Assembly: GCF_030684315.1 (NCBI RefSeq)
Contig: NC_081363.1
Span: 82,979,678 to 83,043,677, forward strand
Reading direction: 5' to 3'
DNA from: Stegostoma tigrinum
Lineage: Eukaryota
Length of the DNA: 64,000 nucleotides
The notes beneath the pieces are model-generated. The model ran no database searches. It had not been told where the DNA came from and worked only from the letters and a program-made list of their open reading frames with translations. Position numbers and translations under genes: made by a program. Shown one piece after another: positions 746 through 57,325 of this stretch (position 1 is its first letter; every line of letters starts with the position of its first letter).

Positions 746-871
746 AGGTCCCCAGACATAAGCAGAAAGACCTAAGGAAGATCCTTTAAACATCGCGATC
801 TTTAATGTGTGCCCACAATACCGATACACCTTCTCCTCTACCCCGGTGTTGTTATCTTCGGCGTTGCTCAT
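746..871 (-). CDS. EEF1AKMT3: EEF1AKMT3/METTL21B-like paralog A, coding exon 1 (rest of gene lies left of the window)
   Basis: ATG at 871; MSNAEDNNTGVEEKVYRYCGHTLKIAMFKGSSLGLSAYVWGP, then a phase-0 GTAAG donor at 745-741. Aligns with exon 1 of paralogs B and C (F/YCGxxLKI...LGVSAYVW) and has the same intron position. Confidence 0.8.
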
Positions 872-2591
872 CGTCTCTGATTTGAAATAGATTCTTGTCA
901 AATTGCCCAGCAGTTTCCTATTCTTCCCAAAGTTGTATTTTTTTTGTTAAACCGGTTTCAACTCCAAGCAACCACGACAAAGCAAAGGTGTTATCTAGGA
1001 ATAAAGAAAGAAATGAGGAAGATACGAATGCGGAGAGGCCTGGTAATAGTCAACGGAGCTTTAAATATCAGGACAACACAGCAAGATCCACAACAAATCA
1101 AAGGAGATGGATGAACTGTCAAATAAGACAATGTTTGCGCAATCCACATAATTCCAATATTGGCCGTTGATCCCAGGGTAGGACAACATTTCATTGCTAT
1201 ATTTAAAACCTTCGTGTCATCTACCATATGTCAATCTGAAAGACGTATGTCGAATATTTCAAATGAAGTATGCTACATTTTAAGTATGCGCGCCATTGGC
1301 AAATTTCAGCAAATTAATTGCAGAAAAGTAAATGTATTTTCTTCGCGTTTTGAATCCGTGAGTCGCTGCTGTTGACCTTAATGGGTTTGCACATATTTTC
1401 TAATCGACCTCTTTCAGCGATGTTATTACACACCACGGAACCAGGCGGGACTTCGAGCCCAGGCCTCCTGGGCCGATTGGTTAGCATGGCTATATGTATC
1501 CAAATTGTCTCCGTAAAGGTTCTAACGAGTTGAACACATGTCTGTGGTCGTAAAGATCACTGTTGGAAAGCAGAGCGAGCAGCTTCTTCAGCTGCTTTCC
1601 ATCTTAACCCTAACCAAATCCTAACCTTTTGCTCTACTGATCATTGTTTTCAACCGCGTTAGTACTGCCAATCCCGAGCTTGCTGGTCACCTCAGCCTCT
1701 AATTATTGCCGCCCTTTTTTATACGCCGAAAATTATGATACTCCATATTACCCATTTAGGCTCAATAAAACGACAGCCGTATCAGTTAATCTGCGCTTCA
1801 AACCCCCAAGACAGCTCCTGTAAAATGGAGCACGAGCTCTGCTTTTAAAGCTTTTAATGAATTACAATCTCCCTGAGTGTTTGAATGCATATTCCCTCAC
1901 TCCTTGTTGCTGCTCCATCATTCGTTTCCACGTTCCTTCTCCCTGTTTCTTTCCTGCGATTCCTGCTTGCTGTTTGGAACATTGGCTTTTCTTTCCCCTT
2001 CAGATTTGTTCAAGGGTAGCTCGGCCACCCGGGCATATTCAGTCAACTGTACTTGAGCATCACTGCTCTTGCCGCTGGCTGGAGCAAATGACATTCAACA
2101 GACAAAGAAGTAGATTTGGATTTGCAATTCTTTTGTTACCTGGTATTCTCGACAATACGAAAACCTTCTATGCAATCAGGTATGAGGCAAGATGTAATTG
2201 TGTTTCCTGGTCTGAATTGCTATTAGATATACAGCATTTCAATTGGTAGATGCTAGATTTTCAATTCATGCTTTTTCCTTTATTCTATTCAATAGAAATT
2301 GTGAGGTCTCAGGGGCCTTCAGTCTCTCACATGCAATTGTTATTAGTTGAGCAGCCCATATCATTGGAGCCAAAGCGTCGCTAGGGAGAATGAGCGAAAA
2401 AAAAGTACCCTTGTGAGACTCAGTAACAATACTGAAGGTGTACAGCGCACGTTAAGATATCTCATTGCCACCACAATGGTTTTGATCTATCTTTGTTTCC
2501 GGTCGGATATCTGCAACAGACTGGCCAGGGGCTCACCAGAGCATGTGCAGTTGTGGACCTTCGCCAGTCTGCAACCAGTCCAAATTATATA

Positions 2592-2796
2592 ATCGTAGAC
2601 TCCCCGACACTGTCGATGCAGGCTATTCGACCCATCAAGTCACGCCGACCCTCCGAAGGGCATCCGACCCAGACCTATCCCGCAAACCTATTCCCGTAAC
2701 TGTGCATTTTCCGTGCTAATCCACCTAGCTATTACATCCCTGGACGCAATGAGCAATTTGGTATGGTAATCCAACCAACATGCGCATCTTTGGACG
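2592..2796 (-). mobile_element. 3' half of an HE1-type SINE
   Basis: Homologous to the SINE copies at 49388 and 58703. Confidence 0.7.
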
Positions 2797-7871: not shown

Positions 7872-8168
7872 CCTTGGAAGTTAACTAAGAGTTTGGAGCG
7901 ATTCCCCCTTGGTGCATTGATCATGGTATGACTCAAACAGTCACAGTAAGTTTTCCTATGAATCAGTCCTCTTTTAGCATGTCTCATAAATGATTATTTC
8001 CTTTGACCTTCAGTATTCTTGCATCTATCCTGAAAAATGCATGAAACAAAGCATTGGCAGCCTGTCTCCTTTTTTAACAATGCCCAAGTTCTACAAACTA
8101 AAGACTTGCATTTATGTGAGGCTGGATGAACACAGCAGGCCCAGCAGCATCTCAGGAGCACAAACGCT

Positions 8169-8196
8169 GACGTTTCGGGCCTAGACCCTTCATCAG
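8169..8196 (-). ncRNA. Minimal hammerhead ribozyme motif
   Basis: Reverse complement reads CTGATGAAGGGTCTAGGCCCGAAACGTC. Confidence 0.7.
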
Positions 8197-9318
8197 AGAG
8201 GGGGATGGGGTGAGGGTTCTGGAATAAATAGGGAGAGAGGGGGAGGCGGACCCAAGATGGAGAGAAAAGAAGATAGGTGGAGAGGAGAGTATAGGTGGGG
8301 AGGTAGGGAGGGGATAGGTCAGTCCAGGGAAGACGGACAGGTCAAGGAGGTGGGATGAGGTTAGTAGGTAGGAGATGGAGGTGCTCCTTGGGGTGGGAGG
8401 AAGGGATGGGTGAGAGGAAGAACAGGTTAGGGAGGCAGAGTCAGGTTGGACTGGGTTTGGGATGCAGTGGGTGGGGGGGAAGAGCTGGGCTGGTTGTGTG
8501 GTGCAGTGGGGGAAGGGGACGAACTAGGCTGGTTTTGGGGTGCGGTGGGGGAAGGGGAGATTTTGAAGCTGGTGAAGTCCACATTGATACCATTGGGCTG
8601 CAGCATTCCCAAGCAGAATATGAGTTGCTGTTCTTGCAACCTTCGGGTGGCATCATTGTGGCACTGCAGGAGTCCCATGATGGACATGTCATCTAAAGAA
8701 TGGGAGGGGGAGTGGAAATGGTTTGCGACTGGGAGGTGCAGTTGTTTATTGCGAACTGAGTGGAGGTGTTCTGCAAAGCGGTCCCCAAGCCTCTGCTTGG
8801 TTTCCCCAATGTAGAGGAAGCCACACCGGGTACAGTGGATGCAGTATACCCCATTGGCAGATGTGCAGGTGAACCTCTGCTTAATGTGGAAAGTCATCTG
8901 GGGGCCTCGGATAGGGGTGAGGGAGGAGGTGTGGGGGCAAGTGTAGTATTTCCTGCGGTTGCAGGGGAAGGTGCCGGGTGTGGTGGGGTTAGAGGGCAGT
9001 GTGGAGCGAACAAGGGAGTCACGGAGAGAGTGGTCTCTCCGGAAAGCAGACAGGGGTGGAGATGGAAAAATGTCTTGGGTGGTGGGGTCGGATTCTTCCT
9101 CTCACGCATCCCTTCCTCCCAACCCAAGCAGCACCTCCATCTCCTACCTACTAACCTCATCCCACCTCCTTGACCTGTCCGTCATCCCTGGACTGACCTA
9201 TCCCCTCCCGACCTCCCCACCTATACTCTCCTCTCCACCTATCTTCTTTTCTCTCCATCTTCGGTCCGCCTCCCCCCCTCTCCCTATTTATTCCAGAACC
9301 CTCACCCCATCCCCCTCT

Positions 9319-9346
9319 CTGATGAAGGGTCTAGGCCCGAAACGTC
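9319..9346 (+). ncRNA. Minimal type I hammerhead ribozyme motif (PLE-associated)
   Basis: CTGATGA-A-GGGTCTAGGCCC (stem II)-GAAA-CG-TC: conserved core with palindromic ACGT in place of helix III; predicted cleavage after C9346. Helix I is only ~2 bp. Confidence 0.7.
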
Positions 9347-10849
9347 AGCTTTTGTTCTCCTGAGATGCTGCTGGGCCTGCTGTGTTCATCCAGCCTCACA
9401 TTTCGTTATCTTGGATTCTCCAGCATCTGCAGTTCCCATTATCACTTGCATTTATGTGACGGTTTTCACTATTGCAGAATATCACAGTATTCTCTGCAGT
9501 CAAATAATTACCTCTGAAGAAACGCATGTAGGAAACACGGGCAGACATTTTGCAAGCAGCAAAGTTTGGCATATGGGACAAATGGCCTAATATTCCGTTC
9601 GATCATTTTTGTTGAGCCTAAAGTGCTATTTTCAATCTCATACATTCTTCTTGTATGGAGTCAGATGACACCAGGTCATACTCCAACTGGTTACAGACAC
9701 GCCGCCTGATGAAGGGGCAGCACTACAAACACTTGTGATTTCAAATAAACATGTTGGACTATGACCTGGTGTGCGTAACTTTTGGTATTGTTCACTCCAC
9801 TTCAACACTGGCACCTCTACATCAATCTTTTACTTTCACAGAAAGAACAGGTTAGTGTTTGATTTAATGTCAAGAGGTACCTCTGACAGTGTACCACTGT
9901 CTCAAAACTTCCCTGGAGTGTTGTTAGCTTTCTGAGGACAAAATTAATGGCCAATTTCTACGTTAGATGAATCTGGTTTACTATAATATTTGCATGTGGT
10001 ACCCACGGAAAATATCATTAATTCACTAAAATGATTGACCAAATATCTGATGGTTGATCCTATTGTTCAGCATATAGTTTCCCATTGATAATTCATTTCC
10101 TCATACAGCTAGTGGTGGGTGTTAAAGTGTACGCATCAAAAAATGTAACAGCTTGTCATCATCCCTAATTCATTTAAGAATAATGAAATCTGTTGTGCTG
10201 TAATGACAATGTCTACATGCGTCATGCAATTATTGATCGGCTATATAATATGTCCACATGGATTCACACACTTCTCGTATGCAATTCCAGCAGAGCGTCA
10301 TCTTTTATTATTTTAGCTACGACTTTATTTTATGAAATTAGCATTCCTGCACCTAAAATAGCTTTTAGCTTTCAAATTTCTCTGTTGGTATGATCATCTA
10401 AAGTTATAATGTGCCTTCCTCCTCATTTGCTGGTATCTTCATTTTTGCTCTTATCAATTACCCAGTGCCAGTACTTTCTGTCAGTTCTGTATTTCCGCAC
10501 CCAGAGCACAGGCCTGGGCACTTCTGTTCTTGCATATCAATTGCTTAAAAACAAGCTGGCCCATTCATCAGGAAAGCATCATATTCTGCGCGTTTCAATT
10601 GGTTAGTTACAAATGTTTCGGCTGTAATCAGCAAAGCGAGATATTCCGCCCAAGGGACATTTTTGTGATCTAGCATGCTGAGTGTTTGAGTATTTCAGCT
10701 CTGATGGAAGTTGGCAGGGAAAGGTCGACAAGGACGATGAAGGATAGACTACTACAGCCTGCAAAATGATCTATGCTATGTCCGAATCCTGAAATCGAAT
10801 ACTAGAGGATCATGCCAGCCGCGTGTTAAACTTAGGGGCGTGATTAAGA

Positions 10850-27868: not shown

Positions 27869-28199
27869 GCTTCCAAAATCTCAATTTATATTTGACAACT
27901 CAGAAGATTCTGATAAAATTGAGTAAAATAACTACTCAGGAAAATTTACATTATTGAACACTTAGTCTAACCCCAAAGTAATTTTTTAACAAACGCCATA
28001 CTTATTTCATGTGCACTCTAACTACACCACCCCCGGATTTCTTCTGTCCTCCAGAACACAAGGATGCAACCTTCATTCTAAGTTGTGCCCCCCCCCCCCC
28101 CCCCCCCAGCTCCGTCACTTGCCACTAGATTCAATCCCCACCAGACCTCCTCAAATACCTCCCTCACTGTTGCTGGACCCAAGACGAATTTGTGGTCAC

Positions 28200-33378: not shown

Positions 33379-33384
33379 TTTATT
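33379..33384 (-). terminator. Candidate polyadenylation signal AATAAA of paralog B
   Basis: TTTATT on the + strand, about 40 nt past the stop codon. Confidence 0.4.
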
Positions 33385-33424
33385 ACACGTTACTACTGCT
33401 AACGGTAGCAATGTGGAGCTCCTC

Positions 33425-33828
33425 CTATTTCTTACAGTCGACAGAATCAAGTTTGGTCAATTTGTAGACAGCTATGTATTTAGTCTCTAATCTGTCCACA
33501 ACCTGGCAATTAAAATAGCCAGGCAGAGTCACTTCATGGAAAGAAAGAGATCCATTCCCATTTCGGAATTCGGAAGCCAGGTAAATCGTTGTCCGTTGGC
33601 TGCAGAGATGCCTCAGTGTATCTACAAGTGCAGTGTAAGAAGATGAAGAATAGACAATATCCGAACCCAAGACGACATCGTAGTCAGTATTAAAGTTATT
33701 TTGATCTTCACCCCAGGTCAGTGCACAGACTTTCAAACGGTGCCTGCAGGCAAAAGGGACGTTAATTGAGATGTTGTTGTTTATTTGCCTCAGAATTGCT
33801 GGTTGGTCTGTCATGGTAACGTTTCCAC
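33425..33828 (-). CDS. EEF1AKMT3: Paralog B, coding exon 3 (404 bp, ends TAG); spliced CDS 687 nt = 228 aa
   Basis: ttttgttctcag acceptor; GNVTMTDQP (post-I), LTWGED, YDVVLGSDIVY (motif II plus DxxY), LRHLC...TIYLAS. Frame is continuous with exons 1-2. Confidence 0.93.
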
Positions 33829-39640: not shown

Positions 39641-39964
<324 letters not shown>

Positions 39965-40902
39965 TCATGAACTTCTGACTGAAATTTAACAGGACGCCGC
40001 TTCCAAACAAAATTGCGGACGAACTTAGTCTCGTCGAATAGGTCAAAGGAAGGTTCAATGCACGTTTCATGAAACACGCCCATTAGTTGCAAAAGCATTA
40101 TGATTATTTGAGCACCGTCTTAAGACTCCCGAAAGAGTCATGCGGCCGTTTCAATTCATTTGATTTGTTCCCCATGTCAATTCGCGCAGAGCAAAATGTT
40201 TGAGAGAGACAAACAGGTATGTAAATGGAAATTGTTGGAAAAGCTCAGCAGGTCTGACAGCATCTGTGGACAGAAATCAGAGTTAACGCTTCGGGTTCCT
40301 CAGATCGGTACCCAGGTGATCGGTATCTATTACGGCTCAACATTCCTCGGTGCGTCTACTCTAGATTATATGATTAATAGTCTCCGGTAGAGATTGGCTC
40401 CACTTGATTCTGTCATAGCAGTCACAATACTATCACTGAGTTATGGTTAACAATAAATGAAAAGTATCAGAAATTTCACCTTGCATTCAACAAATGATTT
40501 TCAGTCCTGAGGAGTGAACTTAATTCGAAAATATAACACTCTTTCTAAACTTCATCCTAAAAGTACGGCAGGCAATTGGAACTTGCAACTCATGTTTATT
40601 TCATCATTTAAACATCTGAGTTATTTTAAGAAAAGATACGTTAGTGTGCGCAAGGCATTGGTGTGTGAACACAGTACAATTCACATTGATAGAATGAACT
40701 ACTTTTAAACTATACCTGACATCTGAAAACTGTACTCATCTTCCTAAGATGTCAAATGAAATGCAACGTGTTCCTGTGCCTCCGCACTGTAATCTCTGAC
40801 TCCAGCATCGGCAGTTCTTACTATCTCTAAGAGCGGCTTTCTGTTCTAATTTAGTCAAACGCGGTTGTCTTTTACTCTATCCGACTAACGCAGTTGACTC
40901 AC

Positions 40903-41073
40903 AGCCTCCCAGACATAAGAGGAGACGCCCATCTCAGCATCCATGTATCGAACGATCTTTAAATTAAATCCGCAAAATTCGAAGTTGCTCTTGCGAATTG
41001 CAGGAGTCGAGATGCGATTCTCGCTCTCGCGAGCCTCGGAGCTACCTTGCTCCCGCTGCTGGGTCGTCGTCAT
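40903..41073 (-). CDS. EEF1AKMT3: EEF1AKMT3/METTL21B-like paralog B, coding exon 1 (171 bp)
   Basis: ATG at 41073 (AACATGA); MTTTQQ...FEFCGFNLKIVRYMDAEMGVSSYVWEA, then a phase-0 GTGAG donor. Matches the METTL21-family GVxxxVWD/EA motif. Confidence 0.9.
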
Positions 41074-41163
41074 GTTTTCTATTCGAACTCCTGAACCCGA
41101 GCGCAAAGGTTTCCAATCAAGTTGACGAGGGGTACAGATTTGCGGCAATGGTTGGAATTGCAA

Positions 41164-41257
41164 TTATATATCGAGTTTGTGTCGTCATGGCGTCTCGGAT
41201 CGCGTCACAGCCAATTATGTGTCATCAGTCCTTAAAGATTTGTGCATAGCAGCCAAT
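41164..41257 (-). promoter_or_regulatory. Putative core promoter of paralog B
   Basis: TATATAA at 41170-41164, about 90 nt upstream of the ATG; AGCCAAT boxes (CCAAT at 41211-41215 and 41253-41257); CGTCA half-sites; locally CpG-rich. Confidence 0.5.
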
Positions 41258-44200
41258 TTTGCAACAAGGATTTGAATAATAAGTATGGGTCGTCGTTCTT
41301 TCTTGATTTTACGTTCAATTAGCAATACAACTAGGCGCCAGTGTCTCCACTGGCGAATTGTCCCATACCCCAGACACCTCAGAGTTAGAATACTTGGTGT
41401 CTCGTTCCAATTCTTGGGGCACAATTTCTATTCTTAACGCAGTACCGAGCGAATGCTGTTCGGCTCACAGCGCACTAACACGAAAGGGAAAGGGCCTCTC
41501 GTTGCCAGTGAACGTTCACGATTATGTGGCACCATTTTGAAGCAATGCTTGGGAGCTGGCAAGTGCCTTGATCAATCACTAGCTCTCAATTACCACCGAA
41601 AACAGAAGCCCTTCTTGCTAGCTTGCTCTGAGCAAATTCGTCAGTCGTCTCCTGCATGCAAACAAATATTGTTCTTCAAAATACTTCAGAAACGTTCAGT
41701 AGTGAATCTATGAGGTTCACCTACATTTCGAGCAGAGACATTCCTGGCCATTGCGGAACCTAAAAGCAATTTTCGAACTATTTCTTCCGCAAATAGAATT
41801 ATCTACTCTTAAGTTCCTGTGTAGAATCATATTGATCTGGAAACGTCAACTCCCTTTCTGTCTCTACAGATATTGCAGAATTAGAGTATCACCAACCAGC
41901 ACTTTCTGTTATTGCTGCGGATCTCCAGCATCAATGATACTCTAAATCTTTTTTTTGCGCTTTTGGTGCAGAAGTTGGTAAAACGTCGTTTCTGTTGTCT
42001 ATTCCCTTTTATTGATCATGAAAACTCCAATAGCATTTCCAAACGCAGGGCAGGGATACCTCTTTTGCTGGTGAGAAAGCCTCCAAATGTGAAAACGGGA
42101 CACAGTTTCAGGGGTTGTCGGAACCTGAAGACTTCGTTATTTACGTGTGAAATTCCCGAGGAAAAAAAAATTCCGTTCGATTTTTGAATCATACACAAAT
42201 CTCCAACTTTTCACATGCTGGCCCTTTACCATTTTGAAACTGAATGACAGCACCAAGTCAATAAGCCAAACATCCTCCTGGGTTACTACTATATGATCGT
42301 TCATTTTCATTGGGACAAAAACTCCGAATTACCTAACAGCACCCCGGCTGTCTTCAACCGAAATTGGCGGCTCTGATCACGATTGGAGCTTGATATATCC
42401 TTCTCATTCAATATTACAAATCTTCAACTAATACAGGTCTCATCAGACAGCCTTGTCTTCAGTGAAATATTCACTTTACCATTCTGCGGTCATGTCTGAT
42501 TTTACAATAATTGAATAACTAATACAGCAGAGATTTGGGGCGGCGTAAGGCAGAAGTTCGGTTATGTTAATCTCAGTGAACGAAGTTTACACCATAATAA
42601 AGATAAACATCCGTTTTTTCAGAAGGGGCCTGGAGGATAAACAGCAGCGCCGATGGATAATAGTGGCAAATCGACTTCAGAACATTAGATGTTGAAGCAC
42701 TGGGATATATAAAACGCCAGGAGAGAGACCAAAGGGCACAACGTGGCAACTATTAGATTTTCATGTTGATAGAAAATTTTCCACACTCGCATGAAAGGGT
42801 ATGGAATACACTGAAGCATTGTGCTTTCCAGCACGAAATTCCTTTAATTAATGTCAGTGTTGAGCTACATTTCTTACAGTGACTACAGAACAGAACATAA
42901 AAGTACGCGCCCTTGAATAAACTATTACATTTCATGACATTGTTTCCCGACCTTTTTAGGTCTAGATTATCTTAATTGCTTGTCTTCACGTTACTAATGC
43001 ATTGATGAAAAAACAAATTAGTGCTGTTTTAGGCCCAAAGAGGAATTTTTGTTTTTAAGATTTGGTCAGATCAGTCAGCAACTGTACTCCCAAGAGAAGG
43101 TAGCGTGTGGCGATGATATCAATTGAATCTCCGCCCCAACAACCCCTCAGCCCTATCTCGAGTACATTCTGTGCTCTAGCCACCCTCAATGTTTCTCGAA
43201 AACGGTGTTCAACTCAGCTGAGATGTCAGTTGAGTACCTGGTTTTACCGTAGGGCAGGGAGAGTTAGGGGTGCTCAGGTGATAGATTGTAGACAGCAGTT
43301 GACTCCCTTATCCATGTTTAACTTGTTGTCATGGTACTTTCATGGACTCTGAATCATTGCTGAGAACTCCCAAGACAACCTTATGCCAGGATGTACCCAG
43401 ATTTGTAATAGTGGTGCCGGGCTCATTAGTTGTAAACTGTAATTCTGCGAATATTTCTATGTCAGTTGTTGTTTTAATAGCCTACGGAACGTTCCTTCAT
43501 ATTTTGGCATAAAACCCTGGGTTTTACTAAGATGGAGTTTGCTGGTCGTTTGATCTAAGTGTGTAATTGTTTCTCCCACTGTTTAAGTTAAAGCCGGGTG
43601 GTCCATCCACCTTGGCTATGTTTTTGTGGTTCCCCACTACTTGAATGACTTTCTACAGTCTTTCGGAGGACAATTACGACTCAGCTACATTTATGTGGCC
43701 CTGAATGCACATGCTGGCCAGATCATGTAAAAACAGCAGGTTTCCTTCTCCGAAGGAGGTTATTGAGACTCATTCGTCTACCTCCTCCTCCAAGCGCACT
43801 CATTTCCTCCGCGCCGCTCAGTTATTGGCAAGTTGTGCAAGTTACAGTGTACAATTCAAGAAACATCAAAACGTCGTTTTGCTGGATTATATCATTTTTC
43901 AAAACACTAACTCTCGATTTCGGGTGCTCAATACCAGCTTGATTGCTGTCCTAAATAAAAACCGAAAGAACTGAGGACGCTGTAAATCAGAAACAAAAGC
44001 AGAAATTACTGGAAACGCTCAGGCAGCATCTGTGAAGAGAAATCAGAGTTACCGTTTCGGGCCCGGTGACCCTTCCTCGCATTTCTCTCCTATTGGAGAC
44101 GTAGTAGTTACTGACATTCCAGCGCCTCCGTTACTAACTTATTTCCTGAATGCCAAAACTTCTGGATAGCCAATGTCGCCCAACAATTACAAATTAAGGT

Positions 44201-45847
44201 TTTCTTATGGCCTGAACATTTGAGGCACTTGCGGCTGTGTCAGTCTCATCATTGCAATTACGAGAGAACGCAACATATTTGGATGAAACTCCACCGTATT
44301 TTGACGCTCTTCCCATTGACGAGTACCACAGGCTACTCTGACATGGCCACATCGGTATAATCCATCACCCACAGCACCTGCTAAAATCCTTCCAAGGTAA
44401 AAATGTACGTGACCCCCTTTGGTTGACAGAAGGTTTTTGCGGCAAAAGTGATATTTAGTTATTTCATTTTGGTAAGAAACTGATTATTTATTGATGTACT
44501 GTAGCTGCTAATGATTCTTTTGACTCCTGCCCTTCAGCGACAACCTATGTGGAACTCTCTTGTATGTAATTGTGTCCGTTCCTGCTCTGCTGCTTCTTGG
44601 TCCGTTGTGTCATTTTATACAGTGGCCTGTGCAACCCAGTTGGGCTGGCAGTTAACATCGTACAGTATCCCCTGACATGCGCACTTAAGTAGTGTTGCAG
44701 AACGGCAATTCCTCAGTACCGGTTATTTGTCTAATGCAAGGAATTATCTTAGCTCTCTTCAACTCTTGTGCTGCTCACTGCATGTCAACGCTATTGTCCT
44801 CTTAGCAAATATGAAAATAGCAAACTAATGTGCGCAAATATCAGGAGATTTTTACCATCATGAGATTTCTAAGTACATTTCCAGAGCTGTTCTTTAAAAA
44901 GGAGTTTAAGCAGACATGAAGCAGCATAATCATAAAAACTAATAATTATCGCTAAGATACAAAGTACAGTGACAGCTGTAACAACAGAAAAATCGAGGGA
45001 AAGAGTCCATCATACCATAAACAAAAACCCTTCCTGAGAACTCCAGTCACCGGATCCGAAACGTTAACTTTGATTTCTCATCACAGATGCTGCCACACCT
45101 GCTGAGCTTTTCTACCAACTCCTGTTTTTCTTTCTGATTTACAGCATCCGCCGTTCTTTCGACTTTTAAGAAAATCGAAAGATTTGGAGGCAATGAAGGA
45201 AAGTGTATCTGAGGTGCGAAACCAGACAGTCGCATTCAATGCTGGAGTATTCCCGTGGCATTGTAAGGGCTATGTTTGTTCCTGTTTCTCAACTCTTTTA
45301 ACTTGAGGCTATGGGCATTTTAGAATCGCCAACAGAGGAAGCAGTGCCTTGACATCTTTCATGTAAAGAGCTACTCTCTGAATGTTGTGATTAGGTCTCC
45401 TATTATTCCAGAGAGGAACTTACCATTTTAGGAAATACTCCAGTGAAACATTGTTGAACCTCAGTTAAGGAAAATATAACGTGCTTTTAAGTAAGGGAGT
45501 CAATAATCAATATTGTACTCCAAATGGGATTTCACCCATTCCAAATCCATTCACCTGAAGGTTACCATAGAATGTACACTTGTAATTGATTTTATGTTAA
45601 CTTTTCTGTAATTCATGGAAAAGGCCCCGCAAATTCCATTGAGTAGTACTGCTACTTTTTTGCTTAATTTTTCTTGACCATGCTGCTTTCTCATTGATCC
45701 CACCAAATGGATAATTGCAAAATTTCCTATATTATGCTCAATCTGTATCTTCATACCCAATCACTTAACCATTTTCAGTTCTTCGTGGCCACCTCACAAC
45801 TTTATTTCACCAAGCTTTGTACATTATAAGCATGGAAATTGGACGTA

Positions 45848-46682
45848 CAGATAGTAACAACTGCTGATGCTGGAGTCTGAAATAACACAGTGTGGAGTTG
45901 GAGGAACACTGCAGGCCAGGCAGCATCAGAGGAGTGGGAAAGCTGACGTTTCGAGTCGGGACCCTTCTTCAGAAATGGGGGAGGGGAATGGCGCTCTGAA
46001 ATAAATGGTGGGGGGCGATGTTATCAGGTCGATAGTAGAGCGGATGGGTGGGAGAGAACGACACATCAAGGAGGTGAGGATGAAGTTAGGAAAGGTGATT
46101 GTAGGTAGATAGTGGCGGCGATTGGTCAGTGAGGTGGGAGGACCGGATAGGTGGGAGAGTAAATGGACAGGTCAACGAGGCGGCGATGGGGGTGTGGTGT
46201 GTCTGGTCTTGGGATAAGGTTGGGGGCGGGCAGATTTTGAAGCTAGTAAAGTCCACATTGAGACCATTGGGTTGTAGAGTTCGAAGGCAGAACATGAGAT
46301 CTGTCCCTCTCCGAGGCGGAATATGAGCTGCTGTTCCTCTCCAAAGCGGACTATGAGGTACTGTTTGTCATATTCCACATTGAAAGCCTACAACCCAATG
46401 GTCTCACAGTGGACTTCACTAGCTTCAAAGTCTCCCCACCTTCGACCTCATCCCAAGATCAGAACCCCCCAAACCCCGCCTCATTGACCTGTCCGTCTTT
46501 TCTCGCACCCAGCCGCTCCTCCTACCTCACTGACTAATCCCCACCACTCCCTGTCTACACTCACCTTTACTAGGTTCATCCCCGCCTCCTTGACCTGCCT
46601 GTCTTCTCTCCCATCTATCCGCTTCACTATCTATCTGCTATCACCGTCTCCCATCTCTATTTATTTCAGAGCCTCCTTCCCC
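45848..46682. mobile_element. Older Penelope-like element, inverted two-arm insertion inside a CR1 remnant
   Basis: Minus arm with LQPNGLNVDFTSFKI, 3' UTR and tail to ~46365; plus arm from ~46368 repeats the same segment. Confidence 0.8.
45945..45972 (-). ncRNA. Minimal hammerhead ribozyme motif
   Basis: Reverse complement CTGAAGAAGGGTCCCGACTCGAAACGTC; stem II sequence differs from the younger family but still pairs. Confidence 0.62.
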
Positions 46683-49387
46683 TAAGTCCTTCGTGCAGAG
46701 ACATGGTCTCTAATGCATTTCTTCAATTTCATAGCTCTGATATTTCGATATTGCCGTTGTTTCATTCTCCAACCTTGTTTGTAAATGATTTTTATTCAAT
46801 CATAACACTTATTTTCATTGCTCTGAAAGAATTTGAAGTAGACATAACCTTGTGTATTTAAGAATGTCCTAGTTTAAGCAAGCTCTCCCAATAATCAAAC
46901 TCCTGGAACCCGCTAACATTCTGCCGAATCGGTAGTGCATTCCTTCCAAGGATCTTTCCAATAAATACTTTAAAGCATTTTACTCTAAAATATGCAGAAT
47001 ACTCTAAATATGGCCTAGTCAGGTTTCTGTATCCTTGCAATAAGCGTCGTCCCTCTTGCCCCGCCCAACATTTGGCTACAAAGTCCGTCGTCGATCAGCT
47101 TTAATTTCTGACCATTTTGCACGCTACCACAGTGTTTTAGGCATGTGTGCACGTGAATCCTCAAATCTCTTTGGAGCTCAGCTCTTTCGTTGATGTAAAA
47201 ATCCGTGTATCTATGTGTTACTGCAAAATAGATTAACTTATATTCACTTGAATTGAATTCAGCTACTCCGCACTTCAATGTTGACAGCCCCTCCTAATAT
47301 CATCTTTGCTGTAATTCATTGGTGAGGGGTCTTCATGTCAAGCGGATAGAAAGTTGACGCCAGAAAACAAGGTCGTAGAAGCTTGGATGGAAGTCACAAA
47401 AGAAGTCTGCTCCCTTGAGGTCAATGAAGGTAGCTGAAAGCAGTGTAATAAAAGGCTGAATGGTCTCTTGCGATCGGAAAGCGTGAGTATGGAATAATTC
47501 TAGCGATGGAATTCCATTCAGGGTGTATGGGTGTGAAAAGTACATATAATGGTGAGACAACGCCCAGACTTAAAACAAATACACCACGTTTAACGGTGCT
47601 GGGTAATTTTAGAGATAGACAGAGACTGGGCTCCGAGAACAGCAAAATTTGTCAATTTCGAAATACCATAAGAAAATGGTTGCAGCAAGAATGGATATGT
47701 TGGCTACCAGAGTGAACGCATAACACTTCCTCTAAAAAAACAGGGTCATAAAGCCGATAAGAGAGCAAGGCCTGGAGGAGCAGCTCAAACCCTGGTCATT
47801 CAACTTCACCACACTGAATGAGGAAGCTCTACAGCGAAGGAACAACTAACGCTATATGGCCATTGGTCACCGAGACGCTGCGTGATACCTTCGAGGTGAT
47901 GAAAATGTGGAGCCACAGACGTCTCCGGGAAAGATTGCACTGCGTAGGTGGATCGAAATTGGGAAACGGAGAGTGGATAGGAGCGTTGATGGATTGATTT
48001 TTTTTATTTTAGCATTCGGAGAGGGATGAATGTCTCAAGTTTGAAGAGATTGGTGTTTAAGTTCCAGGCAGCATTGGTTTGTGCGTATAGGTGTATAGGT
48101 TCATGTATGCGTTTTTGAGGGCTGAGTGGTGTAGCAATGGTGCATCTCTAAATGAATTTCTCTTAGTACGGAGACATTTAGAGCCACATTATTTAAGATT
48201 AGAGGAAGAGCATTCTTTGTAAACGTTCAGTAGTTATATGGGCACTTACGTAAACAGGTCTAATTTGCAGGACAAAATAAACTAGGTTCTGAGATTACAG
48301 CGGACAATTTAAGCAAAGAATGACCACAGACGAGATGGTGCGAATGACCTCTTTCTGCGTTGCAGAATTTTCTGATGTATTGATTTTTTCACGTCGGCGA
48401 GTAAAAATGGATGCTTTTTTATGGCGCATAAATACTTCTGAGTTTTGTACCTTTCCAGTGCTTTTCCGGTGCATCATCAGGTCGCAGGAGAGCGCGAGAA
48501 TGAGACAGAAAGTCGCAGTCACTCTCAGATCCACGGGCGAATAAATTGCAACGTTACAATTTTAATTCTTCGAGGCTTATTATCCATTTTCGCGCGTTGA
48601 AAGTAACATGCAGTTATCAGAAGATAATTGAGTCCGTTGTACACGATATATTTGTTTTATTCTATCTGTGCATTCATTTGTCACTCAGAAATAGAATAAT
48701 TGTTTCACGGCCACAATAACACATTATTGACCAGGCTCAGCTTAACCTTAATTCCGAAATTCAATACAACATTTCAACCGTTCGGCGTCAGATGCAGATG
48801 TTCTATGCATTCACACTTTGTAGTAGAATGTACGACAGAGACGTGAATTGTTTCGAACCACATACTTGTCAAAACTCTTACATTCTATGTCTAGGCAATT
48901 TGCAGTTTAGGGGCTATTTGTAGGAGCTGACCGATATGAATGAACATTGACCAATGGTGTCCCTGGCTCTTTTGCTATCTGTTCTGCGTTAGTCGACAAC
49001 TTTGCGGCCAAAGTTTTCAGTTGGCTGACGTAATTGTTGCAATGAGCATCTACGGTGGCTTCAACTGATCTCTGTGCGGCGAGTATACAATCACACTATT
49101 GCACGCGAACGGTATTTGACGGCAAATTTCGCCAATTAAATATGAATACTAAGTGCACAAACAGTCCAATTACTTCTGCACCAAGTCGACGGTTCCCAGC
49201 AGTGCGAATATATCCATTAAATTCAACTGTCGGGCAATGTCAGCGTTCAATGGTTTTCACAGGGAGAAACAGCAGGTTATGTGTCAACTCGTCTCCAGGA
49301 TTTAAACCGATATCTCTTATCATGACATATATTTACCTGTTTATGTTGTGTTCCTAAATATTGTTTGAAAACTATTTCAAATAGAAG

Positions 49388-49694
49388 TCATACGTCACAG
49401 TGTGGAAAATGGTTCATCGAATCCACACCGACTCTTTGAAGAGCATCCGACCCTAACCCAATAACCCTGCATTTCCCATGGCTAACCCACCTGGCCTGCA
49501 CATCCCTGGACACTGTGGGCAATTACGCATGACCAATTCACCTAATCTGCACACGTTTGGGTTGTGGAAGGAAAGCGGAGCACCCAGAGAAAATCCACGC
49601 AGACACGGGGAGGATGAGCAAACTCCGCACAGATAGTCGTTCGAGGCTCGAAACGAACCCGGGCCTCTGGCGCTGTGCGGCAGCTGTGCTAACT
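49388..49694 (-). mobile_element. HE1-type SINE just downstream of the paralog C stop codon
   Basis: Reverse complement of the same SINE (ggagcacccagagaaatccacgcagacacgggg). Confidence 0.85.
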
Positions 49695-49922
49695 AGGAAG
49701 AACGAGCAACAAGCAACTTAATTGTTGGTTCACTACATTAATTTAGTTATTTAGATACACCATCATGACAAACGGAGCTTCTTAGGGAAGATTATGAACC
49801 ACGTGATAGAATGAGGCGATCCTAAAACAAAGCCTTGAAGATTCTGGATTTTGAATTTATAGAACGAATAGAGAAAATGATCCCCTTATCATGAATTCCA
49901 ACGTCAGCTAAAGTTTCCACAT

Positions 49923-50335
49923 TTATGTTAGGAACCAGTCCTCAGGACCTCTACCAATTTTGGTCATTTTGTACACAGTAATATCCTTGTCTGCTAACCT
50001 GTCAACAACTATGCATTTAAAATACACGGGTAGAAGTACGTCATGAAAAGATAGGGAGCCATTTCCTTTCCGGAATGCGGAAGCCAGAAAAATGGTAGTA
50101 TCTGGATGAGCGAGATAATGTAATGTTCTGATTAGTGAAGAGTAAGAAGCTGAACTATAAACAAGATCCGAACCCAGAATGAAGTCATACTCGTTGGTAA
50201 ATCTAATGTGGTCTTCACCCCAGATCAGGGGGCGGATATTTATGCGGTGTCTGCAGGCAGCAGGGATGTTGGTAGCGATGTTGTGTTCTATCTGCTGCAG
50301 TGCGTTCGGCTGATCTGTCAAGGTAACATTTCCAC
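49923..50335 (-). CDS. EEF1AKMT3: Paralog C, coding exon 3 (413 bp, ends TAA); spliced CDS 696 nt = 231 aa
   Basis: cttcttgtcag acceptor; GNVTLTDQP, LIWGED, YDFILGSDLVY, TIFLAS. In frame with exons 1-2. Confidence 0.93.
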
Positions 50336-50812
50336 CTGACAAGAAGAAGAGAGAAATTATTCACCCACGTTGACGGTTGACCCTGATAGCACGCTGGTAA
50401 GCTATTTGACCACGGCACTAAGCGAGCTCCAGCTGAAATCCGGGATTCGCTCACATTGAGCGTTAGGATAACTATGTGTCGAAAAGGCACTAACACAAAT
50501 GGTCTGACATTGATCAAAATGACCTGGAACGTTAAATGCGAACTTATAAACAAGGAAGTCTGTTCTGTTTTAAAGCTCGCGGGGAAGAAAGTTCATCTCA
50601 TTTTCCTCCAACCACCTTTCACAAAAAAGAATGAACACCGGGAAGTTGCTTTTCAACTTGAGTAGATGGCAACGCCACTGAGTCAAAAGAAGTCCCTCTC
50701 TGCTACTAGATATTACGAAATGGTGATTATCGTCGGGATTTGAACAATCATAGTTGCGCGGAAAGGGATAAGAAATCGTTCATTCCACGAAAAAAATGTA
50801 GAATTTCAAACT

Positions 50813-51023
50813 GTGATCAGAGATAATGGGAACTGCAGATGCTGGAGAATCCAAGATAACAAAATGTGTAGCTGGATGAACACAGCAGGCCGAGCAGCAT
50901 CTCAGGAGCACAAAAGCTGACGTTTCGGGCCTACATGAAGGGTCTAGGCCCGAAACGTCAGCTTTTGTGCTCCTGAGACGCTGCTTGGCCTGCTGTGTTC
51001 ATCCATCTACACACTTTGTTATC
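50813..51023. mobile_element. Miniature fold-back PLE (tail plus inverted tail) in intron 2 of paralog C
   Basis: Near-perfect ~90 bp inverted arms of the PLE 3' end; TSD tagaatttcaaact at 50799-50812 and 51024-51037. Confidence 0.88.
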
Positions 51024-51720
51024 TAGAATTTCAAACTTGCGCGTTAGTAGGGAATAGTATTAAATAAAATCACTAGTCACCCATCGATTAACCTCACCAC
51101 AAAGAACAATAGTTGCCTTATAATTCGTAGACTGAAATGACGCAGGAGCCCGGTTGATTTGAAGGACCGACTTTTTGGGCCAGTGGGGTTGCCACTTGCT
51201 CATGTGTAAAACCAGCTTTCCGGCGTTCAATCCTTTCGAGAATAGTTTTTGGAGCTGATCAAGACAGATTTTCTTGTCTCTGCTCTTTAAAATAAACCAG
51301 AATTACTTTTATTAATCGATCTAATGTTACGTTCCCTTGAAGAGTTCCTGATTTGAAGCAATTTCTGCGCATTTATGCCACTCTGGGTGCCTTGATGGTG
51401 CGTTATGTTTTCCAATTCCCTTGACAGAACTACACAGTTAATTCCATCTCACTGCTACTGCTTCGGAGTCCTTAAAAAATTGACTGTTTCAAACATATAT
51501 TCTGTAGTGCAAGTGCACACTGAAGTCACCATTCAATCTGTGATTACCAGCTTTTCAAGTGATATACTATGGAAAGGGAGTGAATTAAAATGCTCCTAAT
51601 ATCTCTTAAATGATTTTGTCAATTTTTCCTGAAGATGCGTCTTTTTGTTGACAACGGTTCTGCTGGAAGAAGCAGCTCATCCCAATCTACTCGATCAAGA
51701 CATGTGCATGATTTTAAAGA

Positions 51721-51860
51721 TGGTAGGAACTGCAGATGCTGGACAATCTGAGATAGCAAGGTCCTAACCCTTGATCTAGGCCCGAAACATCAGCTTTCCT
51801 GCTCCTCTGATGCTGCTTCGCCTGCTGTGTTCATCCAGCTCTACAACTTGTTATCTCTTA
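51721..51860. mobile_element. Miniature fold-back PLE remnant
   Basis: Minus tail (ggtaggaactgcagatgctgg) joined to plus segment tctaggcccgaaacatcagc...; flanking direct repeat tgattttaaaga at 51709-51720 and 51865-51876. Confidence 0.78.
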
Positions 51861-52972
51861 TGCTTGATTTTAAAGACGTTTTTGGATCTCGTAATGTTCA
51901 CGGCTGTAGGGAAAACTGTTACTCTTTATCTAACCTTTCTGAAGTTTGTCATCTCTGATAACCTCACCCTGCACTATCTAACGCCATGATATTTTGTTGC
52001 TAAAACGCAGGACACGGAAATAGACAAAATCCTCGAACTGTGTGAATAATGTGTGAATTAAAAACGTTTACCTTAGCTCCTTTCCTACTGTACCTAATGC
52101 CTCTATTCCCAAAACCAATCATCCCGTGTGGATCTTATTCCATTAGCTTCACAAATTGTTTGGCCTGAATCGCATATTATTTGAATATATAGTTACATGC
52201 CTGTGCGATCCGCGGACCTCTCCCCTGAAAATTCTAAATTTAGCTAATATCACCTGAGATTTCAATTGACTGGAGTAATTCATTTTCATAGAAAGGCCCC
52301 AAATGTTAAGACTTTGGTTTGAGTGTTCAGATATTCTGGGTACATTGAGTGGATGTTATCAAGAATGCAAGATCAGTAAAACATCAGTTTCTGACGGGAC
52401 ACGGATTTTTCCAATGATGATCATTATAAATCAGCATTCCCTGTGAATGGGCATCACGCAGTTACAACCATTAAAACCTTTGGCTATCATCTGCATTGAG
52501 AATGCATTGCTTTACTACCATTCTTAACTCCAATTTACAGGCTCAACGCGTTCGATGACCCGAAAAAACAACGTAGCTGCTGATATTTGGAATTTATTTT
52601 ATATTCTGCATCAGTGTTGTTCTTGTGGTGTCACTTATATGCGTGTGTTACAAAGTCAGGAACTGTCATCTATCAAATGGGGCAATTAGCCAGGGTCAAT
52701 GTTAAATACGTAGAAGCGAATGGGCAGGTTGTTTGACGTTAGTGTGATGAAAATGCCACTCTGAAACTTGCCATGGGTGAGGGGAGGAGCGGGGTAAGGA
52801 GGTTCACTGCCATTAAATGATCAGCTATAAAATTCTTCTTCATCAGCACCCTCCAACACACACACGCACACAAGCGCGCGCACGCCTCTCTAACATATCT
52901 CCCCTCGTTCACAGAACTTTCGTTTATTGCCTGCATTCAACAAAATCTTAAATCGTTACAAGCCATCTTTCA

Positions 52973-53131
<159 letters not shown>

Positions 53132-53552
53132 TTAACCTATTTCTCGCATTTGTGATTCACTATTTACCCCAAATCAGTACGGGTCGTGGATGAGAACGAT
53201 GCTCTTTGGAGCTAGAGGGACGCTGGTAATATTTGTCGTCAATAACAACAACAAAAACAGAAGTTGCTGGAAAAGCTCAGCAGGTCTGGCACAATAATTG
53301 TTGTCACCCGGCAACTTTCATTGACTACGGTCTAACGTGTTGACTTGATGTCTCGCTTGCTGCGGTACTGAGTCAGGAACGACATGCTTTCAATTAATTT
53401 GCGATTTCTTTTTAAATAATTAACTTATTTTTTTCCAATCAACCTATTCAGAGATGTTATTACACACCTCTGGAACAGGTGGCAGTTTCTCTACCACTTG
53501 TATACTTATATATATTATGTATACTTGACCCAAATCCGGTGAGCTGTACCCA

Positions 53553-53932: not shown

Positions 53933-56079
53933 AGAGTTAATGGGAACGGCAGATGCTGGAGAATCCAAGATAACAAAGTGTGGAGCTGGATGAACACAGC
54001 TGGCCAAACAGCATCTCAGGAGCACAAAAGCTGACGTTTCGGGCCTAGACCCTTCGTCAGAGAGGGGGACGGGGAGAGGGTTCTGGAATAATTAGGGAGA
54101 GAGGGGGAGGCGGACCCAAGATGGAGAGAAAAGAAGATAGGTGGAGAGGAGATTATAGGTGGGGAGGTAGGGAGGGGATAGGTCAGTCCAGGGAAGTCGG
54201 ACAGGTCAAGGAGGTGGGATGAGGTTAGTAGGTAGGAAATGGAGGTGCGGCTTGAGGTGGGAGGGAGGGATAGGTGAGAGGAAGAACAGGTTAGCGAGGC
54301 GGGGACGAGCTGGGCTGGTTTTGGGACGCAGTGCGGGGAGGGGACGAACTGGGCTGGCTTTGGGATGCGGTGGGGGAGAGGGAGATTTTGAAGCTTGTGA
54401 AGTCCACATTGATACCATTCGGCTGCAGGGTTCCCAAACGGAATATCAGTTGCTGTTCCTGCAACCTTCGGGTGGCATCATTGTGGCACTGCAGGAGGCC
54501 CATGATGGACATGTCGTCTAAGGAATGGGAGGGGGAGTTAAAATGGTTCGCGACTGGGAGGTGCAGTTGTCTATTGCGAACCGAGCGGAGGTGTTCTGCG
54601 AAGCGGTCCCCAAGCCTCCGCTTGGATTCCCCAATGTAGAGGAAGCCACACCGGGTACAGTGGATGCAGTATACTACATTGGCAGATGTGCAGGTGAACA
54701 TCTGCTTAATGTGGAAAGTCATCTTGGGGCCGGCGATGGGGGTGAGGGAGGAGGTGTGGGGGCAACTCTAGCACTTGCTGTGTTTGCAGGGGAAGGTGCC
54801 GGGTGTGGTGGGGTTGGAGGGGAGTGTGGAGCGGACAAGGGAGTCATGGAAAGATTCCATCCCCTATTCGCAATTCCTTCGCCTCCGCTGCATCTGCTCC
54901 CTGGATGAGGCATTCCACTCCTGCACATCCCAGATGTCCGCCTTCTTCAAGAACCGCAACTCCCCACCCCACCCCCACCCCCACCGCAGTGGTCGAGAAC
55001 GCCCTTGACCGTGTCTCCCGCATTTCCCACAACTCATCCCTCACACCTCGCCCCCGCAATAACCGCCCTAAGAGAATCCTCCTCGTCCTCACATACCACC
55101 CCACCAACTTCCGTATACAACGCATCATCATCCGACACTTCCGCCATCTACAATCCGACCCCACAACCCAAGACATTTTTCCAACCCCACCCTTGTCTGC
55201 CTTCTGGCGAGACCACTCTCTCCGTGACTCCCTTGTCCGTTCCACACTCCCCTCCAACCCCACCACACCCGGCACCTTCCCCTGCAACCGCAGCAAGTGC
55301 TACACTTACCCCCACACCTCCTCCCTCACCCCCATCCCAGGCCCCAAGATGACTTACCGTATTAAGCAGATGTTCACCTGCACATCTGCCAATGTGGTAT
55401 ACTGTATCCATTGTACCCGGTGTGGCTTCCTCTACATTGGGGAATCCAAGCGGAGGCTTGGGGACCGCTTCGCAGAACACCTCCGCTCGGTTCGCAATAG
55501 ACAACTGCACCTCCCAGTCGCGAACCATTTTAACTCCCCCTCCCATTCCTTAGACGACATGTCCATCATGGGCCTCCTGCAGTGCCACAATGATGCCACC
55601 CGAAGGTTGCAGGAACAGCAACTGATATTCCGTTTGGGAACCCTGCAGCCCAATGGCATCAATGTGGACTTTACAAGCTTCAAAATCTCCCCCTCCCCCA
55701 CCGTATCCCAAAACCAGCCCAGTTCATCCCCTCCCCCCACTGCATTCCAAAACCAGCCCAGCTCTTCCCAGCCTCCCTAACCTGTTCTTCCTCTCATCTA
55801 TCCCCCCTCCCACCTCAAGCCGCACCTCCATTTCCCACCTCCCAACCTCATCCCGCCTCCTTTACCTGTCCGTCCTCCCTGGACGGACCTATCCCCACCT
55901 ACACTCTCCTCTCCACCTATCTTCTCCTCTATCCATCTTCGGTCCGCCTCCCCCTCTCTCCCTATTTATTTCAGAGCCCTCTCCCCATCCCCCTCTCTGA
56001 TGTAGGGTCTAGGCCCGAAACGTCAGCTTTTGTGCTCCTGAAATGTTGCTGGGCCTGCTGTGTTCATCCAGCTCCACAC
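53933..56079. mobile_element. Penelope-like element (Neptune-type), two 5'-truncated copies joined head-to-head, in intron 1 of paralog C
   Basis: Plus arm (~54850-56079) encodes DSIPYSQFLRLRCICS (RT C-terminal region), a frameshift, a Cys linker PCNRSKCYT and a GIY-YIG domain (VVYCIHCTRCGFLYIGESKRRLGDRFAEH). Minus arm (53933-~54850) is the inverted 3' part. TSD tttgtcatcagcatc at 53918-53932 and 56080-56094. Confidence 0.92.
54033..54060 (-). ncRNA. Minimal hammerhead ribozyme motif, sense to paralog C pre-mRNA
   Basis: Reverse complement CTGACGAAGGGTCTAGGCCCGAAACGTC (CUGANGA core intact). The partner on the plus arm (55997-56024) has CTGATGT, i.e. A9 is mutated. Confidence 0.68.
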
Positions 56080-57154
56080 TTTGTCATCAGCATCCTTGGA
56101 TTCTGTAGGTCATAAGAGCCGAGCTTCCTTCTGAAGTGGTTGCTCAGGGCATATCACCAGAGGTTGGTCGTGAGACAGCATCGGTCAGCAACATCGGTGT
56201 TATAAAGGGAAACGTGGAGCCTGAGAGCAAGAAAAAAAAACACCGCAAGCCGACATTCGTGGCCTCAAGTCATTTAACCAGTACTAAGAGGCTCTAACAT
56301 TTATTGCCGGCAAGGCTTGTCGGGAATAGCAGGTTCTTCAATTTAAAATATGGGTGAGAAATTCATGCACAGGATAGATAAGCGCATTGTGGCGGGGTTT
56401 TAATCGCAACGGGGAGCATTAGAAAGCAGATTGGTGGGCAGCAGATTCCACTACTGCTCGCCCATTTTGCGCTATTCAGGCGTTTCACAGTCCAGTTGGT
56501 GTCAAGGGCCCCCGGGGTGATAATTCCACAACCGATAATTGCCAGCAATCTACAGGATGGCAGGTCCCCTGGTCTCATTAGGAGGCTGAAGCTTTAGCAG
56601 GTAGAATCCAAAGGAGGATACGTATGGGAATGATGGCGAGAGCATGGCTGGAGATGGAGATAAGAAGCACGGCCGGCTTTCAGCCACACCCACCCCTCCC
56701 CTCCAACCAAACCTCCACTCCACCCCTCGCTCCTCACGCCACCCATCTCTTTTCCGTTGCTTGATCAGCTATGACCTTAGGAAGGGTCCACGGGAACCCT
56801 GCAAGAACACATGGTGGGGTTTGCTGGCCGTGCTGCTCCCCACATGGCGAGCCAGCGCCCATTGATCGCCAATTTTAGGTGCTCCAATTGCCGTGAATGC
56901 TTCTTCCCGCATCGCTGTGGACGTAGGAAAATGACAATCCCCAGCCGAGACCATACCTTCCTCGAACCCTGCACCCGCCCGAACACACCACGCCGAAAAG
57001 GCACTGGATTCCGGAAAACAGTACACATTGCTGAACTCTTTACAAATCGAAAAATTCTGAGAAATTTAAAAAGGGATAGCAAAGCCTTAAAATTAACTCG
57101 ACATAAAAGACGACAGACCGGCTTTTCCTAGATCTGACAAGTTATTGAACTTAC

Positions 57155-57325
57155 CGCGTCCCAAACATAAGCAGACACACCCAGGTTAGCGCTCGTGTTC
57201 CGCGCGATCTTTAAGCAGTATCCGCAGAAAGCGAAGTTAGTTTGATTGATGTAATAGATCGAGGGCTGAATCTTGTCCGTGGTGTCATCGTCATTACAAT
57301 TCTCCGGGGATCTAATGGTGGTCAT
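57155..57325 (-). CDS. EEF1AKMT3: EEF1AKMT3/METTL21B-like paralog C, coding exon 1 (171 bp)
   Basis: ATG at 57325 in ACCATGA context; MTTIRSPE...FAFCGYCLKIARNTSANLGVSAYVWDA; GTAAGT donor, phase 0. Same length as paralog B exon 1. Confidence 0.9.

Follow-up and report, generated by a model that had tools for sequence, protein, structure and literature searches.

What do the tandem lysine methyltransferase genes of the zebra shark, Stegostoma tigrinum, do, and is any of them the gene whose name they have been given? The question is raised by a 64,000-nucleotide stretch of contig NC_081363.1 (assembly GCF_030684315.1, positions 82,979,678 to 83,043,677, here called the window), whose genes resemble EEF1AKMT3/METTL21B. 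According to the accessible text of earlier work, METTL21B is a vertebrate-limited, highly specific enzyme for Lys165 of eEF1A (PMC5416902, PMC10238732, PMC8662637), and seven-beta-strand lysine methyltransferases are mostly single-copy, one-substrate enzymes, of which humans have 16 (PMC10238732); the accessible parts of these three sources make no mention of cartilaginous fish, and those of PMC13410288 bring nothing further to the point. Our answer, to which we give a probability of about 0.65, is that the window belongs to an array encoding what would be active protein-lysine methyltransferases, with eEF1A-K165 left to the parent gene and new, subfamily-specific protein targets acquired by the copies. 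Because the catalytic core is kept and the loops predicted to grip the substrate are rebuilt, these enzymes probably mark proteins other than the known target.

The minus strand of the window carries two intact three-exon genes, G57 and G41, and exon 1 of a third, G0.8. Rebuilt from the window sequence, G57 (57325-49923) encodes 231 aa in exons of 171, 112 and 413 nt: exon 1 (57155..57325) specifies a disordered N-terminus, a beta-hairpin, substrate loop 1 and the catalytic Trp55; exon 2 (52978..53089) the motif I that binds S-adenosylmethionine (SAM); and exon 3 (49923..50335, stop codon included) the post-I Asp102, the DXXY motif (Asp151, Tyr154) and substrate loops 2 and 3. G41 (41073-33425) encodes 228 aa in exons of 171, 112 and 404 nt, located at 40903..41073, 39829..39940 and, with the stop codon, 33425..33828. 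All introns of both genes are GT-AG, in phases 0 and 1, and the open reading frames are free of stops, so the rebuilt genes agree with an initial annotation, made from the letters alone, that had recognized three co-oriented paralogues, two of them intact with these exon lengths and identical intron phases. The proteins match, at 100% in each exon, RefSeq entries XP_048394354.1 (G57) and XP_048394353.1 (G41) of S. tigrinum, both named 'EEF1A lysine methyltransferase 3-like'. Exon 1 of G0.8 (871-746, 126 nt) runs from an ATG to a GT donor in phase 0, and the remaining exons lie beyond the left edge; it found no exact match among the family proteins compared, its best match (69% over 42 aa) being P0282 of the horn shark, which belongs to the 'short N-terminus' subclade, and this third paralogue is assigned there as well. 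DNA contigs from four runs, representing at most two samples, gave single-copy depth outside repeats over 39700-53200, the part of the window tested, and none of the seven differences listed between these contigs and the window falls in a coding exon. An assembly artefact is ruled out for 39700-53200 by these contigs and also by the existence of orthologues in other species, and a retrocopy origin is ruled out by the retention of both introns.

The predicted products have the fold and the catalytic residues of a lysine methyltransferase. Exons 2 and 3 of G57 and G41 score 31-61 bits against the Pfam family Methyltransf_16 (cut-off 21), and an AlphaFold model of G57, with a mean predicted local distance difference test score (pLDDT) of 86, comprises a disordered segment (residues 1-22), a beta-hairpin and a seven-stranded core. 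The top Foldseek match of this model is human METTL21B (4QPN; template modelling scores 0.83/0.95, 46% identity), with METTL21A, C and D ranking below it, and the model of a short-clade relative, P0019 (pLDDT 85), shows the same fold elements. Across a comparison set of 104 grouped array proteins in 13 subfamilies, set against 120 orthologues of EEF1AKMT3, residues W55, E79, G81/83/85, D102, W133, D151 and Y154 are invariant in 104 of 104, and motif I, the post-I Asp, the DXXY motif and the cage Trp are intact in G57 and G41 and throughout the 104.

The array nests within the METTL21B clade without being the EEF1AKMT3 orthologue. Trees were built with FastTree (176 rows), with IQ-TREE under LG+G4 (67 rows) and under a C20 mixture (42 rows, after 25 rows, long branches among them, had been dropped); METTL21C-like rows entered the FastTree run only, as an outgroup, and METTL21D, placed in no tree, was compared by score. 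All three trees concur on the main points. METTL21A falls outside the METTL21B clade on a branch supported at 100/100 under both LG+G4 and C20, and the METTL21C-like rows fall outside it in the FastTree run; the copies thus do not split among known METTL21 subfamilies, all of them lying inside the METTL21B clade (100/100). An expanded clade that includes the window genes is supported at 100/99 (LG+G4) and 85/97 (C20), and its union with the shark orthologues as sisters at 100/99 and 99/99, respectively. On the evidence of these trees, the window genes are not the EEF1AKMT3 orthologue, a place filled instead by XP_048379406.1, encoded on a separate 19.6-Mb sequence. The initial description of the genes as EEF1AKMT3/METTL21B-like consequently holds as regards the clade, but the actual orthologue is absent from the array and resides on another chromosome; judged from the phylogeny, the RefSeq label 'EEF1AKMT3-like' hides non-orthologues. 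Within the expanded clade, G57 belongs to an orthogroup (100/98) that takes in squalomorph as well as galeomorph sharks but, in the set analysed, no batoids, and G41 to one (100/99) that spans sharks and batoids. As three proteins of the chimaera Callorhinchus, two of them on long branches, fall inside the expanded clade, the phylogeny dates the start of the expansion to before the holocephalan/elasmobranch split; the trees thus support an old expansion, as suggested earlier, and favour its being lineage-specific.

The sequences also set array and orthologue apart by motif. An N-terminal motif, LFx[DE]x[FY], is present in 113 of 120 orthologues vs 1 of 104 array proteins; a motif following DXXY, D[IL]VYL, in 94/120 vs 0/104; and a beta5-loop motif, SK[MV]RxEH, in 106/120 vs 0/104. 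The orthologue motifs are conserved from sharks to mammals and are retained in the shark and ray orthologue group that includes XP_048379406.1. In the array, moreover, the residue directly after the DXXY Tyr has changed from Leu to Ser, Asn or Thr.

A structural map for these changes is supplied by METTL21D. As described in the accessible text of the source, the crystal structure of METTL21D with p97 shows the S2-H1 loop, motif II and the S7-H5 loop surrounding the substrate loop, with the target lysine lying among V38, W43, Y147 and Y148 (PMC10339199). With limits taken from that account, the three loops map to residues 42-56, 151-158 and 180-189 of G57, and the 80 orthologue-conserved columns divide into 21 inside the loops and 59 outside. 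G57 changes 10 of the 21 loop columns vs 11 of the 59 outside (p 0.019) and G41 changes 11 vs 9 (p 0.002); the corresponding figures are 1 and 0 for the zebra shark orthologue, and 5-7 and 21-22 for METTL21A, an enzyme with a different substrate. Since the loops are changed at 10-11 of 21 columns, compared with 5-7 in METTL21A, the array by this measure keeps the METTL21B scaffold, with gripping loops that are more heavily rewritten than those of METTL21A. The rewritten loops are in turn conserved: relative to other surface loops, they carry more subfamily-specific conserved residues (2.8 vs 1.7 per column, p 0.0006), and conservation within subfamilies is much the same (0.87 vs 0.83). At the position matching Val38 of METTL21D, located by its offset from the cage Trp, a Val, Phe, Tyr or Ile is found depending on the subfamily, and, more speculatively, this residue could switch between mono-, di- and trimethylation. 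Distant single residues can also discriminate targets, according to the accessible text of PMC9942839. The possibility of new substrates, raised when the locus was first annotated, thereby gains sequence support from the divergence of the loops and stays an inference.

The pattern of divergence between G57 and G41 speaks to the selection acting on them. In exon 2, 2 of 37 residues differ against some 18 synonymous changes, for a nonsynonymous divergence (dN) of 0.025 and a synonymous divergence (dS) of 1.41; in exon 3, 55 of 131 residues differ (dN 0.32, dS 1.12), and 22 of the first 28 residues differ. The resulting dN/dS ratios, about 0.02 for exon 2 and 0.28 for exon 3, are rough, as dS is close to saturation. 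The likeness of exon 2 is not explained by gene conversion, which is ruled out because its dS is not below that of the other exons and similarity at the DNA level stops some 10 nt inside the introns. These figures uphold the original contrast between a nearly unchanged exon 2, despite many synonymous changes, and the far more diverged exon 3 and N-termini, together with the reading of purifying selection. Between zebra shark and horn shark, identity is 86% for G57 and 85% for G41, compared with 87% for the orthologue, and neither copy looks neutral, each forming an orthogroup that crosses species.

The expansion extends well beyond the window and beyond this species. A profile of 19 shark proteins returned 356 matches at E 1e-30 or better, the best 120 of which are all elasmobranch. 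Among the matches listed, at least 15 clusters lie on one assembly sequence in the sevengill Heptranchias and at least 12 on one in the horn shark Heterodontus, with at least 8 in Mustelus and at least 6 in Pristis. Heptranchias has lineage-specific duplicates, and copy number varies. In the zebra shark, seven annotated family genes on one 96.4-Mb sequence (XP_048394351, 353, 354, 355 and 356, XP_048393284-9 and P0294), with G0.8, bring the total to at least eight. By comparison, a query with a sturgeon protein gave 217 matches, of which the best 120 comprise 111 of bony type and 9 from elasmobranchs, with at most two clusters per named bony vertebrate species. Synteny and gene order outside the window were judged from shared assembly sequences and accession numbering alone. 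In Chiloscyllium punctatum, chiPu_0014294, 14296, 14301 and 14302 are family members on one 1.05-Mb scaffold, and at least six of the nine consecutive gene numbers chiPu_0014294-14302 belong to the family, two of these six, the orthologues of G57 and G41, having been placed by consecutive accession. This gene-number order suggests that the array probably passes both edges of the window. The first count of at least three tandem copies thus described a real array and understated it, the family being chondrichthyan-wide and much larger; the proposed extension past the left edge agrees with the position of the rest of G0.8, and the numbering points to a continuation on the right as well. By accession numbering, members of the short- and long-N-terminus subclades apparently take turns along the array, a pattern hinting that the duplicated unit comprised two genes. 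Genes of the expanded clade also occur on other chromosomes (P0047, P0285, P0273/P0276/P0281/P0297/P0301): a skate sequence of 10.9 Mb bears several nearly identical copies, a whale shark sequence of 9.7 Mb is also involved, and a third chromosome carries a conserved subfamily of its own.

How might such an array have arisen, and what would its products do? We propose that METTL21B/EEF1AKMT3 was duplicated at the DNA level in early cartilaginous fishes, ahead of the divergence of elasmobranchs from chimaeras, and that the duplicates grew into a large tandem array of which the window would be a part, the adjacency of genes outside it being surmised. The parent gene would have stayed next to TSFM, on the chromosome that was to become the X of elasmobranchs, and its product probably continues to methylate Lys165 of eEF1A. 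The array copies would be seven-beta-strand, SAM-dependent protein-lysine methyltransferases that hold SAM through motif I and post-I and the target lysine in a Trp/Asp/Tyr cage, and that have lost the orthologue's N-terminal motif and rebuilt the three substrate-gripping loops. Each subfamily would have its own conserved version of these loops, and targets or methylation levels would differ among subfamilies.

Several observations weigh against this reading. The 104 array proteins exclude truncated, unassigned, degenerate, off-array and chimaera rows; the p-values for the loops are not blind, the consensus pattern having been seen by eye before the loop limits were fixed; and the roles of the loops are transferred from METTL21D rather than from METTL21B with eEF1A. 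Cluster counts may include isoforms or merge close paralogues, and a shared assembly sequence denotes the same chromosome, not adjacency. An array-type gene in a bony vertebrate could fall outside the best 120 of the 356 matches or the best 120 of the 217. An approximately unbiased (AU) test does not reject a single clade of shark and bony orthologues (p 0.21), so the array might go back to a more ancient paralogue of jawed vertebrates that bony fishes no longer have. Finally, the post-I Asp is missing from a G41-like protein of the whale shark, P0042, and the motifs of P0056 are disrupted; judged by these residues, some array copies are decaying.

There are other explanations, one of which is that all copies still methylate eEF1A, at Lys165 or at paralogue-specific sites, and that the array divides the work among tissues, stages or stress conditions or raises dosage. 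The scaffold is indeed nearer METTL21B than any other family, and many of the loop changes, for instance Ala to Ser at 51 and 82, are array-wide and could stem from one early event. In the accessible text of PMC5416902 and PMC10238732, human METTL21B is stress-inducible and Lys165 sits in a variable patch, one in which eEF1A1 and eEF1A2 are not alike. We nonetheless hold this explanation to be unlikely: the loop residues of the orthologue are conserved all the way from sharks to mammals, yet more of them are altered in the array than in METTL21A, the subfamilies differ among themselves at the same loop sites, and the orthologue has been retained as a separate gene. The copies might instead have turned from proteins to small amines, peptides or free lysine, perhaps as part of detoxification or of the metabolism of methylamines or osmolytes. 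Such a shift would fit the absence from the array of the N-terminal motif and of the substrate-loop residues that mark the orthologue, and replacement of Leu by Ser, Asn or Thr after the DXXY Tyr would open the pocket; large tandem arrays are, besides, typical of metabolic or detoxifying families. The shift appears very improbable, however, as the lysine cage (W55, D151, Y154) is invariant and the characterized members act on folded proteins, as far as the accessible text of the review goes (PMC10238732).

The remaining alternative, birth-and-death turnover of largely dispensable, drifting duplicates, draws on the degenerate copies P0042 and P0056, the variable copy number and the duplicates specific to Heptranchias. 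For G57 and G41 it is already largely refuted by the low dN/dS of both exons, by zebra-to-horn shark identities like that of the orthologue and, for G41, by an orthogroup covering sharks and batoids, and we consider it the remotest of the explanations considered here. Returning to active enzymes with new protein targets, it is tempting to speculate about what they might serve. The cytosol of cartilaginous fishes is rich in urea, which gives rise to carbamylation, and the array would be about 400 million years old. Ten or more lysine methyltransferases peculiar to these fishes, each with a substrate and a methylation level of its own, might, quite speculatively, form a layer of non-histone methylation that is absent from other vertebrates and suited to this cytosol, and, at similarly long odds, such a layer might stabilize proteins or shield key lysines from urea-derived carbamylation. 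The coelacanth is also ureosmotic and has only orthologue-type entries among the matches listed, which counts against this idea.

Set beside known systems, the array shares with EEF1AKMT3/METTL21B (4QPN) the fold, the Methyltransf_16 domain and the catalytic residues, as well as the intron positions, as judged from the breaks in mammalian alternative models (P0064, P0133, P0137, P0393). It differs in lacking the N-terminal, post-DXXY and beta5-loop motifs and in being multi-copy. METTL21A (HSPA-KMT), METTL21C/E and METTL21D (VCP-KMT) have in common with it the MTF16 subfamily, the DXXY motif and the lysine cage, but METTL21A, C and D give lower sequence and structure scores to the array than does METTL21B. 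A further parallel is the primate FAM86/eEF2-KMT family, likewise a lineage-specific multiplication of a seven-beta-strand lysine methyltransferase according to the accessible text of PMC10238732; the FAM86 copies, however, are recent segmental duplicates and mostly pseudogenes, whereas the array is ancient, mostly intact and divided into cross-species subfamilies. No description of the expansion was found in the literature searched, outside which lie subscription papers and some supplements that could mention the family; its genes are machine-annotated, and in that literature the family seems undescribed. The main text of a whale shark paper (PMC8455134) contains neither 'methyltransferase' nor 'METTL', and its supplement lists an orthogroup, OG0001578 (EEF1AKMT3), of 92 proteins in 28 taxa. 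Expansion of a gene family is an ordinary type of event, and the interest of this one rests on the putative shift of substrate. If true, 8-15 or more extra, conserved METTL21B derivatives per shark genome would amount to up to a second complement the size of the human one (16) and would offer a natural series for studying how these enzymes choose a folded substrate, with a constant core, swapped loops and the retained parent as a control.

The 5' regions of the window genes offer hints of expression. Against a window median CpG observed/expected ratio of 0.5 over 127 tiled 500-bp bins, the first exons are CpG-rich (0.91-1.25): the ratio is 1.12 for the first-exon region of G57 (57000-57499), a value reached by 2 of the 127 bins, 1.25 for that of G41 (40800-41299), reached by none, and 0.91 for the first exon of G0.8. 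A motif scan found TATA and CCAAT-type motifs 5' of the ATG of both intact genes, with a TATA-like box at 57405..57411 for G57, 86 nt from the ATG and followed farther 5' by CCAAT-type and GC-box motifs, and another at 41164..41170 for G41, 97 nt from the ATG, all on the minus strand. G41 also has a candidate polyadenylation signal at 33379..33384, 40 nt 3' of the stop on the same strand, and an orthologue of G41 (P0034, a skate cluster) occurs as a full-length spliced reading frame on a 1,342-bp Logan contig. Together, the CpG-rich first exons, the TATA boxes and the spliced Logan frame hint at expression. CpG content is raised as well at 47000-51000 and 31000-34000, at a distance from the first exons and in the neighbourhood of the final exon of each intact gene.

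Relatives of the zebra shark orthologue are annotated as TSFM isoforms, and the linkage to TSFM is drawn from these annotation names only. Human EEF1AKMT3 adjoins TSFM on chromosome 12. The true shark and ray EEF1AKMT3 is sometimes labelled a TSFM isoform (P0286, P0307, P0076), and one model fuses to its last exon a start that we take to be TSFM-like; the labels may reflect either shared or read-through transcription or merged gene models. The assembly sequence bearing the orthologue measures 73.08 Mb in Mobula hypostoma and 28.81 Mb in the white shark, which are the upper X sizes quoted in the accessible text of bioRxiv 10.1101/2025.02.26.637739, and 37.8 Mb in the horn shark, which is outside the quoted range. 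Because the first two sizes equal those of the quoted X and, according to the accessible text of PMC10620051, the shark X shares homology with a part of human chromosome 12, the orthologue is likely X-linked in elasmobranchs. An 'out of the X' origin, in which the array would stand in on an autosome for a gene located on the X, is unlikely, as the chimaera members predate the split and the introns are kept.

Elsewhere in the window, neither a fourth family gene or pseudo-exon nor a host gene was found by tblastn with family proteins or by Pfam analysis of all 177 long stop-to-stop frames, in which Methyltransf_16 was the sole family to score above the cut-off, and an Rfam search gave no match. 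Retroelement copies at 53969-56088, in intron 1 of G57, and at 8115-9441 show weak GIY-YIG matches below the Pfam cut-off and presumably resemble Penelope-like elements; the intronic copy has 886-bp inverted arms that are 92% identical, and short pieces related to these elements are present at very high copy in the DNA runs. A 565-bp direct duplicate (25135-25699 and 27317-27881, 2.2 kb apart, 99.6% identical), whose frame has no Pfam match, is either a recent local duplication or an assembly slip. Among the relatives recovered, proteins of piranhas, anchovy, sardine and catfish (P0039, P0041, P0046, P0051) contain 2-6 tandem METTL21C-like domains in up to 1,923 aa, representing either a parallel expansion in teleosts, achieved through repeats within one protein, or gene models that read through. 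EEF1AKMT3 was also found in kiwi, rhea, emu, tinamou, goose and duck (P0320, P0341, P0350, P0404, P0417, P0418), and these six bird proteins run contrary to the statement, in the accessible text of PMC5416902, that the enzyme is absent from birds.

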